Source: Escherichia phage WPEC2. From it: 64,000 nucleotides of DNA. Position 1 is the stretch's first letter. Each line of letters opens with the position of its first letter. The stretch lies in sequence record PV691511.1. The stretch is one strand, 5' to 3'. Shown here one piece after another: positions 31,647 through 32,605 of this stretch. The notes beneath the pieces were generated by a model. The model did not search any database, was not told where the DNA came from, and saw only the letters and a list, made by a program, of their open reading frames with translations. A program made the translations under genes and the position numbers.

Positions 31647-31724
31647 GGACTTGTAGAGTTAAGGTAAACCCCCCAGTCGCCAAGAGGCTTCTGGAATTGC
31701 AGGTATCGAATCCTGCCGAGTCCC
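31647..31724 (+). ncRNA. tRNA-like RNA without canonical anticodon arm
   Basis: 7-bp acceptor GGACTTG/CGAGTCC and T-arm GCAGG-TATCGAAT-CCTGC, but middle is a CCAG..GCC-AAGA-GGC..CTGG tetraloop hairpin. Confidence 0.35.
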
Positions 31725-31730
31725 AGCTTT

Positions 31731-31805
31731 GCTCCTATAGTATAATGGCTATTACAACGGTTTTGTAATCCGTGGATCTCTGTTCGATTCAGAGTGGGAG
31801 CACCA
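31731..31805 (+). tRNA. tRNA-Thr (anticodon UGU)
   Basis: acceptor GCTCCTA/TGGGAGC, anticodon loop TTTGTAA, T-arm CTCTG-TTCGATT-CAGAG, CCA. Confidence 0.65.
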
Positions 31806-32080
31806 ACACAACATTAAGAGCACTGTGATTGATCGTCGTATCCTGTGCACAAGGTCTGTTCGAAAGACAGTGTTCTTAGTATTGTGTTGATCACACAAAA
31901 AGAGTTACCTGAAACTTGACCGGAGTAGGGTTGGATGGGGCAAAAGAAGAAGCGGCTCTCCCATCGACAGCAACGAAGAATAATATTTGACTTTGGTTTT
32001 GTATTATTTTAAGTTAGCTTACCGAACGTAGGGCTAGTCACCCAATGGGATACTCGTCACTGTCCCACTCAATAAAACTA

Positions 32081-32110
32081 TTGACAACCAATAGTAAAAT
32101 GTAGTATAGT
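32081..32110 (+). promoter_or_regulatory. promoter CTATTGACAA class
   Basis: TTGACA 32081-32086, 18 nt spacer, TATAGT 32105-32110, 12 nt before tRNA-Gly. Confidence 0.5.
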
Positions 32111-32121
32111 AAAGAGGTAGG

Positions 32122-32195
32122 GCGTTCTTGGTGTAGCGGTAGCATTCCGTCCTTCCAAGTCGGCGGCACGAGTTCGATCCTCGTAGAACGCTCCA
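32122..32195 (+). tRNA. tRNA-Gly (anticodon UCC)
   Basis: acceptor GCGTTCT/AGAACGC, anticodon loop CTTCCAA, T-arm ACGAG-TTCGATC-CTCGT, CCA. Confidence 0.65.
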
Positions 32196-32293
32196 AATTA
32201 TTTAATAAAGGGTTGCCAGAAAACTTTCTCTTTTACTCATGGTTTTCTCCTTCTCTCACACCTCTTCTGGTTGCCCTTCATTAAATGATTTAT

Positions 32294-32369
32294 TGGTTTG
32301 TAGTGTAGTCAGGTAGCACACGACACTTTGACTGTCGTAGGTTTGGTTCAAATCCAGACAGACCAGCCA
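32294..32369 (+). tRNA. tRNA-Gln (anticodon UUG)
   Basis: acceptor TGGTTTG/CAGACCA, anticodon arm CGACA-CTTTGAC-TGTCG, CCA. Confidence 0.65.
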
Positions 32370-32374
32370 TATAA

Positions 32375-32451
32375 CGGAATTTAGCTCAGTTTGGTAGAGC
32401 ATACGCTTTGGGAGCGTAGGGTCGCAGGTTCGAATCCTGCAATTCCGACCA
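32375..32451 (+). tRNA. tRNA-Pro (anticodon UGG)
   Basis: acceptor CGGAATT/AATTCCG, D-arm GCTC-AGTTTGGTA-GAGC, anticodon arm TACGC-TTTGGGA-GCGTA, CCA. Confidence 0.75.
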
Positions 32452-32457
32452 ATTTAA

Positions 32458-32531
32458 TGTTTCGTAGTTCAATGGTAGAACCCACGACTGATAATCGTGA
32501 GACACAAGTTCGATTCTTGTCGAAACAACCA
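32458..32531 (+). tRNA. tRNA-Ile (anticodon GAU)
   Basis: acceptor TGTTTCG/CGAAACA, anticodon arm CACGA-CTGATAA-TCGTG, T-arm ACAAG-TTCGATT-CTTGT, CCA. Confidence 0.75.
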
Positions 32532-32533
32532 AT

Positions 32534-32605
32534 TTCCCGTTAGACTTACAGGATAAGAGTTCCACAACTTATTGTGATGCTGGTTCGAATCCAGCACGGG
32601 ATACC
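32534..32605 (+). ncRNA. tRNA-like RNA without canonical anticodon arm
   Basis: acceptor TTCCCGT/ACGGGAT (U1-U72 mismatch), perfect T-arm GCTGG-TTCGAAT-CCAGC, middle is CACAA-CTTA-TTGTG tetraloop hairpin. Confidence 0.35.

Follow-up and report, generated by a model that had tools for sequence, protein, structure and literature searches.

Described counterparts of the two candidate RNAs analysed here (candidates 1 and 2) include RNAs of phages T5 and BF23. In T5, RNA3 has for decades been an annotation with no assigned function, and its loci in T5 (AY734508) and BF23 (NC_042564) are entered in GenBank as misc_RNA rna3, 'tRNA-like RNA with unknown functions'. RNA3 is not in Rfam, and no experimental work on T5 RNA3 was found in the open-access literature. 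RNA1 and RNA2 of T5 and BF23 carry the same GenBank wording ('tRNA-like RNA with unknown functions') and, like the candidates, combine an acceptor stem and a canonical T arm with the lack of an anticodon loop in a tRNA array, but they measure 125-144 nt, contain large internal insertions and are unrelated in sequence to either candidate. The T4 tRNA cluster also includes possibly comparable small stable RNAs, species 1 and 2 (rnaC and rnaD), which are larger than the candidates and are co-transcribed and co-processed with the tRNAs. More generally, phage tRNA islands carry counter-defence functions, as with the T5 tRNA-Lys that acts against PARIS.

Outside phages, mascRNA (RF01684) and the organellar t-elements are anticodon-less tRNA-like folds that are cut from longer transcripts by tRNA-processing enzymes. 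Their biogenesis would be analogous to that proposed for the candidates, but they are eukaryotic or organellar and non-homologous, and the sole RF01684 match in the region (20 bits) falls on tRNA-Arg. The tRNA-like domain of tmRNA resembles the candidates in its acceptor stem and T arm, in its reduced D region and in having a helix at the position of the anticodon arm, whereas the candidates lack the G3:U70 pair, the mRNA domain, the pseudoknots and any sequence similarity to tmRNA. At 3-70, candidate 1 has an A-U pair, its homologues have G-C or C-G, and candidate 2 has C-G; no tmRNA was found by ARAGORN in the window, the whole 64-kb stretch of DNA that was analysed.

Genomic context of the candidate RNAs

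The window belongs to a phAPEC8-like E. coli phage of the genus Phapecoctavirus. The features relevant to the two candidates are the following.

31111..31140, + strand: sigma-70-like promoter at the head of the candidate 1 sub-cluster, TTGACA-18-TAGATT with extended TG (consensus match only)
31554..31639, + strand: tRNA-Asn(GTT), by ARAGORN/Rfam, ending 7 nt before candidate 1
31647..31724, + strand: candidate 1, homologue of T5/BF23 RNA3, a putative tRNA-like RNA gene without anticodon loop
31731..31805, + strand: tRNA-Thr(TGT), by ARAGORN/Rfam, beginning 6 nt past candidate 1
32081..32110, + strand: sigma-70-like promoter at the head of the candidate 2 sub-cluster, TTGACA-18-TATAGT, 11/12 matches (consensus match only)
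32458..32531, + strand: tRNA-Ile(GAT), by ARAGORN/Rfam, ending 2 nt before candidate 2
32534..32605, + strand: candidate 2, putative tRNA-derived RNA gene of a separate family, with a 4-nt loop replacing the anticodon loop
32610..32688, + strand: tRNA-Met(CAT), by ARAGORN/Rfam, beginning 4 nt past candidate 2
32804..32822, + strand: intrinsic-terminator-like hairpin closing the tRNA array (sequence pattern)

Both candidates lie on the tRNA strand, 2-7 nt from the flanking tRNAs, and are bracketed by the promoter-like and terminator-like sites. The original prediction described two tRNA-like elements at 31647-31724 and 32534-32605 without a usable anticodon loop, each directly following a genuine tRNA, and both the sequence and the computed folds agree with it, tRNA-Asn and tRNA-Ile ending 7 and 2 nt upstream. 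The two candidates are very probably real genes for tRNA-shaped, non-decoding RNAs within phage tRNA operons.

Fold of candidate 1

Candidate 1 is composed of four parts.

31647..31653, + strand: 5' strand of the acceptor stem, GGACTTG, pairing with CGAGTCC at 31717-31723
31654..31672, + strand: core, TA-GAGTTAAGGTAAACC-CC, sequence-invariant, with a reduced D arm
31673..31694, + strand: hairpin replacing the anticodon arm, CCAG-TC-GCC-AAGA-GGC-TT-CTGG, as in the minimum-free-energy fold
31699..31716, + strand: T arm, GCAGG-TATCGAAT-CCTGC, stem 31699-31703 with 31712-31716

The minimum-free-energy fold gives a tRNA-like shape (z = -3.3 against dinucleotide shuffles) in which the 7+5 acceptor/T stack is present. 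The 7-position acceptor stems proposed earlier are present in both candidates, with seven pairs including one G.U in candidate 1 and six pairs plus a U.U in candidate 2; the near-canonical T arm is canonical in candidate 2, while the T loop of candidate 1 (TATCGAAT) has 8 nt against the canonical 7. The D stem of candidate 1 is 3 bp (GTT/AAC) where the canonical stem has 4 bp, and its invariance across the family leaves no covariation by which to assess it. Tetraloop hairpins in place of the anticodon arms, as originally described, appear in the minimum-free-energy folds of both candidates with AAGA and CTTA loops, the candidate 1 hairpin being 22 nt long with an internal loop. The discriminator of candidate 1 is C31724 and is C or A in the family, and the 3' end reads C-AGC with no encoded CCA; given this variable discriminator and the missing CCA, entry of candidate 1 into full tRNA maturation is an assumption.

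Comparison of candidate 1 with RNA3

Sequence and structure identify candidate 1 as the homologue of T5/BF23 RNA3 in Phapecoctavirus, a known entity rather than a new one. It is the best match in the window of the RNA3 covariance model R1 (90.6 bits) and also of R3, a covariance model derived from seven T5-like phage sequences only, which scores it at 38.5 bits (E 1.8e-8), 10 bits over the best tRNA in the window. Candidate 1 and T5/BF23 RNA3 both carry TAGAGTTAAG(G)TAAACC as invariant core, an ATT linker and a T loop of 8 nt with the sequence YATCGAAT; both also have the 7+5-bp acceptor/T stack and, instead of an anticodon arm, a closed hairpin. The acceptor-stem and hairpin sequences, in contrast, are wholly changed in a compensated manner, the hairpin of candidate 1 is longer, and T5 RNA3 encodes A73-CCA where candidate 1 has C73 and no CCA. 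RNA3 also directly follows tRNA-Asn in T5 and BF23, with a gap of 2 nt there against 7 nt in the window, and tRNA-Asn is likewise the conserved upstream neighbour in T5-like phages. What follows downstream depends on lineage: tRNA-Thr in the window, an ORF in T5, and some other sequence in the case of phiWec188.

The RNA3 family alignment (A3: Phapecoctavirus, Justusliebigvirus and T5-like phages) is invariant in columns 6-16 and 20-24, and the family keeps a 17-nt invariant core, TAGAGTTAAGGTAAACC, across two phage families. The 29 invariant columns belong to the core, to the variable region or to the T loop, the last with the conserved sequence YATCRAAT. Pairing is found in 91.7% of alignment cells, against 28-44% with slid partners, and both sides have changed in 12 of the 18 pairs of the three helices, a covariation drawn from few independent lineages (three). 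These include four of the seven acceptor positions and three of the five T-stem pairs, and the hairpin stem has been exchanged wholesale with pairing retained (TCTAGA/TCTAGA in muut, GGTAGC/GCTATC in T5) around loops of 4, 6 or 7 nt. By per-feature BLAST, candidate 1 is 97-100% identical at eight loci in Phapecoctavirus, with 97% for KMB37 and a divergent copy in muut, while at the same eight loci tRNA-Asn, Tyr, Thr or Pro has been swapped, has diverged to 79-83% or is missing. The element is thus more conserved than the neighbouring genuine tRNAs, and it is retained in two Phapecoctavirus loci without a callable tRNA-Asn (L125 and L223).

One reading of these loci is that the candidates are functionless, decaying tRNA pseudogenes carried along in the tRNA island. 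For candidate 1 this degenerate-tRNA reading, one of three functions offered in the original prediction, is effectively excluded because the element surpasses the tRNAs in conservation and shows stem covariation, which extends over 12 of 18 pairs in an RNA that both Demerecviridae and Stephanstirmvirinae carry. What is new here is the presence of RNA3 in a second phage subfamily, the Stephanstirmvirinae, its better conservation than that of the surrounding tRNAs, and an invariant elbow core with freely varying stems, found beside a second, independently evolved anticodon-less tRNA derivative.

Candidate 2 as a separate family

In candidate 2 the acceptor strands TTCCCGT (32534-32540) and ACGGGAT (32596-32602) form six pairs plus a U.U at 1-72, the canonical T arm GCTGG-TTCGAAT-CCAGC occupies 32579-32595, and the D stem is a shifted CTTA/TAAG around CAGGA, invariant and hence without covariation. 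The anticodon arm is replaced by the following hairpin, whose stem is retained in all variants.

32563..32576, + strand: candidate 2 hairpin, CACAA-CTTA-TTGTG

The minimum-free-energy fold matches the described shape (z = -2.7 against dinucleotide shuffles), and candidate 2 scores 88.4 bits with its own model, R2. Family members occur in Phapecoctavirus, in W70, A7_1 and LTH01 (Vequintavirinae) and in phiEB49. The phiEB49 homologue is annotated as 'tRNA-Val(AAC)' (JF770475) and shares with candidate 2 both the TAGGCTTACAGGATAAGA D-loop region and the T arm, the acceptor stem being compensated; it differs in having a 7-nt TTAACAA loop with U33, A73 and CCA and in being called by ARAGORN, although its score of 24.6 bits falls short of the Rfam tRNA threshold, which is 29. 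The comparison identifies candidate 2 as independently derived and related to a tRNA-Val(AAC)-like gene of phages, with an anticodon loop that has collapsed to 3-5 nt.

Candidate 2 was also considered as a second RNA3 copy and rejected because both RNA3 models score it like any tRNA, at 22.3 bits (R1) and 21.1 bits (R3), within the 19-28 bits of ordinary tRNAs in the window. Judged by these scores, candidates 1 and 2 belong to different families. The idea of a second copy arose from the strings TTC..GT-TAGA..TTA, TGCTG and GATACC, which candidate 2 and T5 RNA3 have in common.

In the comparison with related phages proposed earlier, both regions prove to be conserved and show compensatory changes in their stems, in other phage families as well. 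Pairing is found in 96% of the cells for the candidate 2 family, and both sides have changed in six pairs, again in few independent lineages (three). Between Phapecoctavirus and Vequintavirinae, an acceptor C-G is replaced by U-A and a T-stem G-C by A-U, the hairpin stem is preserved or turned to G.U through several loop indels, and the variable sites are mostly unpaired, all of which argues against a decaying pseudogene. The loops vary by substitution and indel (CTTA, TTTA, TTT and CTA in Phapecoctavirus; ATATC, GTATC and GTCTC in Vequintavirinae; TTAACAA in phiEB49). These same indels count toward decay, as do the 1-72 mismatch, the non-conserved 3' ACC/ACA end, a D-stem-breaking change in the DIJ07P1 lineage, the phiEB49 homologue with its 7-nt loop and tRNA-Val annotation, the absence of candidate 2 from Justusliebigvirus, where it was not found, and a divergence like that of the spacers, conservation being no better than in the adjoining spacers (94-97%). 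Candidate 2 may therefore be a degenerate tRNA, and the evidence for function is weaker for it than for candidate 1, but as an account of both RNAs, pseudogene decay is quite improbable.

Decoding capacity

A functional anticodon arm has a 5-bp stem and a 7-nt loop with U33 and a purine at position 37, a pattern unmet by candidate 1 (AAGA) and candidate 2 (CTTA). Neither was called by ARAGORN in default mode or locally with -ps, and neither was reported by the Rfam tRNA model (RF00005) even at E <= 10; an Rfam search of positions 30000-34000 at that threshold turned up no other family that accounts for either candidate. The candidates could still be unconventional but functional decoding tRNAs that use an odd-sized anticodon loop in another register. 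With its thresholds lowered to 70%, ARAGORN does read candidate 1 as 'Leu-CAA' and candidate 2 as 'Ser-ACT', and a 7-nt loop exists in BF23 RNA3 and likewise in phiEB49. The Leu-CAA register, however, is a forced fold with a 4-bp stem and C33, less stable than the tetraloop fold by 8.7 kcal/mol. The homologues, with loops of 3, 4, 5, 6 or 7 nt and with neither U33 nor the triplet conserved, are unable to adopt such forced registers; the muut arm, a perfect 6-bp stem capped by an ATTT loop, cannot take up the forced fold. The relaxed ARAGORN check suggested with the original prediction thus gives no normal 7-nt loop at usable stringency, only calls forced at 70% thresholds, and the decoding reading is largely refuted and scarcely credible.

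Occurrence outside the window

In IMG/VR, nearly all matches to a 14-base motif from the core were due to chance, and a stricter two-block pattern retrieved only T5-like, Phapecoctavirus and Justusliebigvirus members. The same two-block pattern gave 99 matches in 185,579 bacterial and archaeal genomes, all of them taken as chance since none was recovered by the RNA3 model (E <= 0.01). Neither the bacterial genomes sampled nor a set of 5,426 E. coli genomes contained anything similar to the candidates, and the E. coli set also yielded no host origin or prophage copy. A co-inherited protein partner of RNA3 was sought by tblastn, and no ORF of the BF23 tRNA region matches the window. The other spacers of the array are without similarity to the BF23 stable RNAs I, III, IV, X and 2H.

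Likely processing and possible function

The 12-bp acceptor/T-arm stack and tRNA elbow of both candidates make tRNA-like release the most likely route of biogenesis. The 5' ends would be released by RNase P in tRNA style, and the short 3' trailer would be trimmed once RNase P has cut the next tRNA and then be followed by CCA repair or addition, presumably yielding stable RNAs of about 72-78 nt. Among the three functions offered in the original prediction, a processed stable RNA is the best-supported inference.

The same features could instead be cis-acting punctuation, in which the folds only recruit RNase P and 3' trimming enzymes on behalf of their neighbours and the excised RNA is functionless, as in mitochondrial tRNA punctuation, plant t-elements and the mascRNA/MALAT1 3' end. 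The spacing of 2-7 nt from tRNAs in polycistronic units is consistent with this, as is the ORF that lies about 27 nt downstream of RNA3 in T5 and BF23; the conserved part, the acceptor/T-arm stack, is the RNase P substrate determinant, so that a purely cis role would explain its conservation. An extra site would be redundant, however, since adjacent tRNAs already provide RNase P sites every 75-90 nt. Punctuation also does not require a 17-nt core that is invariant across two phage families, the downstream neighbour changes by lineage (tRNA-Thr, ORF or other sequence), and the element persists without tRNA-Asn in L125 and L223. Punctuation as the sole role therefore seems unlikely, although it deserves some weight.

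The preferred explanation of the candidates combines their identity, a tRNA-like biogenesis and a role as trans-acting tRNA mimics, with a probability of roughly 0.55 overall. As the stems and distal hairpin of RNA3 vary freely around an invariant elbow core, the active part would be the acceptor/elbow half. The best guess is that the RNAs act in trans by occupying a host tRNA-binding factor, a mechanism that by itself is tentative and may well prove wrong, and that they serve host takeover or counter-defence in an accessory role rather than as a component of translation. T5 RNA3 lies within the 8.2-kb segment that is deleted in the viable T5 st0 according to the GenBank annotation, which counts toward an accessory role. 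An approximately 8-kb deletable region of T5 has been termed an anti-defence island and carries tRNA-Tyr and Rad, which are active against retrons (10.1101/2023.03.15.532788, preprint). Together with the lack of a BF23 ORF homologue and the absence from the bacterial genomes sampled, the st0 deletion and the anti-defence island support a host partner and an accessory role.

A more specific form, related to the nuclease decoys of the original prediction, would make RNA3 and the candidate 2 family dedicated anticodon-less tRNA decoys that bind and block, or mis-trigger, a host tRNA-directed immune effector or toxin. So specific a role is rather improbable, but if true, the RNAs would show an acceptor/elbow surface without an anticodon loop to cleave and would represent an RNA-based counter-defence spread horizontally among enterobacterial phage tRNA islands, as a complement to the cleavage-resistant phage tRNAs acting against PARIS and retron Eco7. 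Taken together, its occurrence in a second phage subfamily, its conservation above that of the tRNAs, its elbow core and the neighbouring candidate 2 make RNA3, long a curiosity, a candidate whose role as a trans-acting tRNA mimic can be tested.

Annotation of the two families

An RNA3 homologue is annotated in none of the related phage records inspected, and Rfam entries for both families would allow correct annotation in several hundred phage genomes. Among GenBank phages there are roughly 470 RNA3 sequences and roughly 80 of the candidate 2 family. In some phage records, spurious small ORFs have been placed over the region of candidates 1 and 2.

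Architecture of the two elements

The array and its setting comprise the following features:

31647-31724 (+), candidate 1, tRNA-like element between tRNA-Asn and tRNA-Thr
32534-32605 (+), candidate 2, tRNA-like element between tRNA-Ile and tRNA-Met
30763 to 32688 (+), ten tRNAs called by ARAGORN
31460-31544, tRNA-Tyr, added by the Rfam tRNA model
31149-31235, weak Sec-like match of the same model on a TGA-anticodon tRNA
31111-31140 and 32081-32110, sigma-70-like promoters, each bounding a unit with an element
32804-32822, terminator-like hairpin, likewise bounding such a unit

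The candidates share the strand of the tRNAs and are separated from them by gaps of 2-7 nt. The array is flanked by a leftward gene block on one side and a rightward spanin/terminase/portal block on the other, and the tRNA region is 100% identical in WPEC4 and 97-99% identical in phAPEC8-like phages (Phapecoctavirus, Stephanstirmvirinae).

Paired regions of the candidates and of candidate 1 homologues
Candidate 1: acceptor GGACTTG/CGAGTCC (31647-31653 with 31717-31723); T arm GCAGG-TATCGAAT-CCTGC (31699-31716); hairpin CCAG-TC-GCC-AAGA-GGC-TT-CTGG (31673-31694)
muut: acceptor GTGCTTG/CAAGCAA; T stem GTAGG/CCTAC; hairpin TCTAGA-ATTT-TCTAGA
T5-like: acceptor TTCTGTG/CACAGAT; T stem GCTGA/TCAGC; hairpin GGTAGC-CAACCA-GCTATC
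Candidate 2: acceptor TTCCCGT/ACGGGAT (6 pairs and U.U at 1-72); T arm GCTGG-TTCGAAT-CCAGC; hairpin CACAA-CTTA-TTGTG

The original prediction of two tRNA-like genes with a tetraloop hairpin in place of the anticodon arm is borne out by the sequence and by minimum-free-energy folds, which give the same shapes (z = -3.3 for candidate 1 and -2.7 for candidate 2 versus shuffles). For candidate 1 the acceptor, T arm and hairpin stand as described, while the T loop is 8 nt long instead of 7 and only a 3-bp stem (GTT/AAC) is left of the D arm. Even with matches of E <= 10 admitted, ARAGORN and the Rfam tRNA model make no call at 31647-31724 or 32534-32605, and local ARAGORN in default and -ps modes calls neither candidate. 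Relaxed ARAGORN runs probed for a standard 7-nt loop in a different register, and calls appear only when forced at 70% of thresholds: 'Leu-CAA' on candidate 1 (4-bp stem, loop GCCAAGA, C33) and 'Ser-ACT' on candidate 2. The Leu-CAA register was rejected: homologues are unable to form it, and the tetraloop fold is favored over it by 8.7 kcal/mol. Unconventional decoding by these RNAs is contradicted by the variable loop length and the absence of U33, and our confidence that the elements are correctly identified and do not decode is about 0.9.

Candidate 1 is the RNA3 of T5 and BF23

A sensitive BLAST search with tRNA-Asn, candidate 1 and tRNA-Thr as query finds the element in Justusliebigvirus phages, and in T5-like phages (Demerecviridae) the match spans tRNA-Asn to the first third of candidate 1; both groups of loci keep the architecture with different stem sequences. 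BLAST with a T5-like copy matched 354 records, two of which, T5 (AY734508) and BF23 (NC_042564), annotate it as misc_RNA 'rna3: RNA3', starting 2 nt past tRNA-Asn in each. The BF23 record describes rna3 as a 'tRNA-like RNA with unknown functions' and lists the tRNA-like RNA1 and RNA2 and the stable RNAs RNAI, III, IV, X and 2H. Because rna3, RNA1 and RNA2 are annotated in the T5/BF23 records, the anticodon-less tRNA-like class is long familiar to the T5 field; it has no Rfam entry, and our literature search turned up no open-access experiments on RNA3. When the whole window is scanned, filters off, with a covariance model built on seven T5-like sequences only, candidate 1 is the top match (38.5 bits, E 1.8e-8; best tRNA 28.5 bits). 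Candidate 1 belongs to the T5 RNA3 family and displays every defining feature that could be tested.

In a structure-based alignment of 12 distinct RNA3 sequences, standard pairs occupy 91.7% of cells versus 28-44% with the 3' partners slid by 1-3 columns. Both sides change at 12 of the 18 pairs and none of 500 shuffles reaches the covariation score, the changes stemming from about three lineages, so that the count of events is a loose one. The 29 invariant columns comprise T6-G7, TAGAGTTAA, AAACC and ATTG together with the greater part of the T loop, which points to constraint on the core and elbow, with the stems and distal hairpin free. The hairpin varies from 6 bp (T5, muut) to 9 stacked layers (window) and its loop from 4 to 6 or 7 nt, arguing that the distal end is not a measured contact of the anticodon type. 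Neutral decay into a pseudogene is effectively excluded for this element.

When each feature is compared by BLAST with loci of Phapecoctavirus, Justusliebigvirus and Vequintavirinae, candidate 1 has identities of 97-100% across eight Phapecoctavirus loci and 97% in KMB37 (Justusliebigvirus), although these loci lack tRNA-Asn, Tyr, Thr or Pro or have them swapped for 79-83% alleles; two related loci (L125, L223) keep the element with no callable tRNA-Asn upstream. A long-variable-arm tRNA-Asn beside RNA3 is common to the window and some T5-like phages (e.g., locus L005, 1479-1558), and T5 and BF23 have an ordinary 78-nt tRNA-Asn beside the same RNA3. These swapped, absent or differing neighbors show that RNA3 is retained independently of the adjacent tRNA. 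Cis-acting processing punctuation would account for the retained RNase P determinants, but it is redundant with the flanking tRNAs and leaves the invariant 17-nt core and the changing downstream neighbor unexplained, and so does not explain all of the data.

Candidate 2 represents a separate family

Both RNA3 models, combined and T5-like-only, score candidate 2 at 21-22 bits, the level of ordinary tRNAs; its assignment as an RNA3 copy was rejected on this ground, and it belongs to a different family. Sensitive BLAST finds it near full length in 77 records, mostly Phapecoctavirus, and also in the Vequintavirinae phages W70, A7_1 and LTH01 and the Drexlerviridae phage phiEB49, whose homolog is annotated and ARAGORN-called as tRNA-Val (anticodon AAC), with a 7-nt loop TTAACAA, A73 and CCA, and an Rfam tRNA score of 24.6 bits against a threshold of 29. 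Candidate 2 is related to this phiEB49 tRNA-Val-like gene and is the same kind of object as candidate 1 in a separate lineage. TAGRCTTAYAGGATAAKA and the T arm are common to all members; changes in the acceptor stem are compensated (TTCCCGT/ACGGGAT, TTTCCGT/ACGGAAA, GGCCCGT/GCGGGCC), and A-U can replace G-C as the first T-stem pair. In the central arm, CACAA(C)/(G)TTGTG, two stem changes result in G.U pairs, and the loops are CTTA, TTTA, TTT or CTA in Phapecoctavirus and ATATC, GTATC or GTCTC in Vequintavirinae. In a 12-sequence alignment of the family, 96% of cells are paired and 6 of the pairs vary on both sides. The family model finds members in Phapecoctavirus, Vequintavirinae and phiEB49 only, with none in T5, BF23 or Justusliebigvirus. 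The case for candidate 2 still being functional is weaker than for candidate 1, because its identity within Phapecoctavirus is spacer-like (94-97% by per-feature BLAST), one genome has a D-stem-breaking change and the 3' ACC reads ACA in several; here a neutral pseudogene is possible.

Distribution, processing and possible role

In IMG/VR, pattern scans recovered RNA3 solely from contigs of T5-like, Phapecoctavirus and Justusliebigvirus phages. Across 185,579 genomes of bacteria and archaea the same pattern has 99 matches, of which the RNA3 model recovers none (E <= 0.01). Neither candidate matches any of 5,426 complete E. coli genomes, and one metagenome scan for candidate 2 returned two Phapecoctavirus contigs and nothing else. 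On this distribution, both elements are phage-specific.

Both candidates keep a 12-bp acceptor/T-arm stack. Since RNase P recognizes this stack and the elbow, it would release each element at its 5' end, as in tRNA biology; exonucleases would then trim the 4-6 nt that remain once the following tRNA is cut, and CCA would be added. A73-CCA is encoded by T5 RNA3 and not by candidate 1. The elements resemble mascRNA and t-elements in likely biogenesis, and the tRNA-like domain of tmRNA in outline, without being members of either group. Neither element can decode. Aminoacylation by a single synthetase is unlikely, since the discriminator may be C or A and no sequence has G.U at 3-70.

None of the BF23 tRNA-region ORFs has a homolog in the window, yet both phage groups share hosts, and we infer that the partner of the invariant RNA3 core is a host factor. 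The AY734508 annotation gives T5 st0 recombination sites at 33667-33683 and 41882-41891, and the 8,208-bp record is exactly the segment deleted in T5 st0; as rna3 lies inside it, RNA3 is dispensable in the laboratory. According to a preprint (10.1101/2023.03.15.532788), T5 and SP15 carry a deletable 'anti-defence island' of ~8 kb with tRNA-Tyr and Rad, active against retrons, and T5 tRNA-region deletion mutants were used in a PARIS study (PMC11464382). Dispensability, the anti-defence island and a probable host partner make an accessory tRNA-mimic role in counter-defense or host takeover plausible, although we regard a trans-acting mimic mechanism as tentative and somewhat less probable than its alternatives combined. 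Both elements are real and merit annotation and testing; they represent a known kind rather than a new category.

Other features of the tRNA array

A third unannotated, conserved, structured element (31348-31440, +) lies between tRNA-Ser(GCT) and tRNA-Tyr and forms three hairpins (TTACTTT/AGAGTAA; TCGG-AGATGG..CCATCT-CCGA; TAGTT-AGTG..CACT-GGCTA). It occurs in Phapecoctavirus, Justusliebigvirus and Vequintavirinae (W70), with compensatory changes at three pairs (e.g., AGATGG/CCATCT versus AAGTGG/CCACTT), and has no Rfam match or similarity to the BF23 stable RNAs.

Several tRNAs are unusual. The tRNA-Asn(GTT) at 31554-31639 (+) has 86 nt and a stem-loop variable arm, the class II architecture that in bacteria is normally that of Leu, Ser and Tyr tRNAs. 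The tRNA-like gene at 31149-31239 (+), with a TGA (Ser) anticodon and encoded CCA, is missed by ARAGORN; its sole Rfam match is sub-threshold tRNA-Sec (37.4 bits versus 47), shuffled sequence folds just as stably (z = -0.1), and its counterpart is called tRNA-Ser(TGA) in Justusliebigvirus loci (muut; L193 by ARAGORN). The first tRNA-Met(CAT), at 30763-30837 (+), has the T loop ATCGAAA; A54 and A60 are typical of eukaryotic initiator tRNAs, not bacterial ones. It is the best non-self match of the combined RNA3 model, whose T loop likewise starts ATCGAA. The last tRNA-Met(CAT), at 32610-32688 (+), shows a 1-72 mismatch and an oversized D loop and is labelled 'tRNA-Pseudo-CAT' in two GenBank records; it may be of the Ile2 (lysidine) or initiator-like type.

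In some GenBank records the island is overlaid with small hypothetical ORFs, in WPEC4 (L001 765-860, 2378-2539) at positions equivalent to 30964-31059 and 32577-32738 (+) of the window; one overlaps candidate 2 and tRNA-Met, and they are probably annotation artifacts. More tRNA-like sequences that lack annotation are visible by eye in the Justusliebigvirus array of KMB37 (L003 2812-2890, 3040-3130); they combine acceptor and T arms with odd D arms, and one has a CAT anticodon loop, which suggests that such elements are common in these phage islands.
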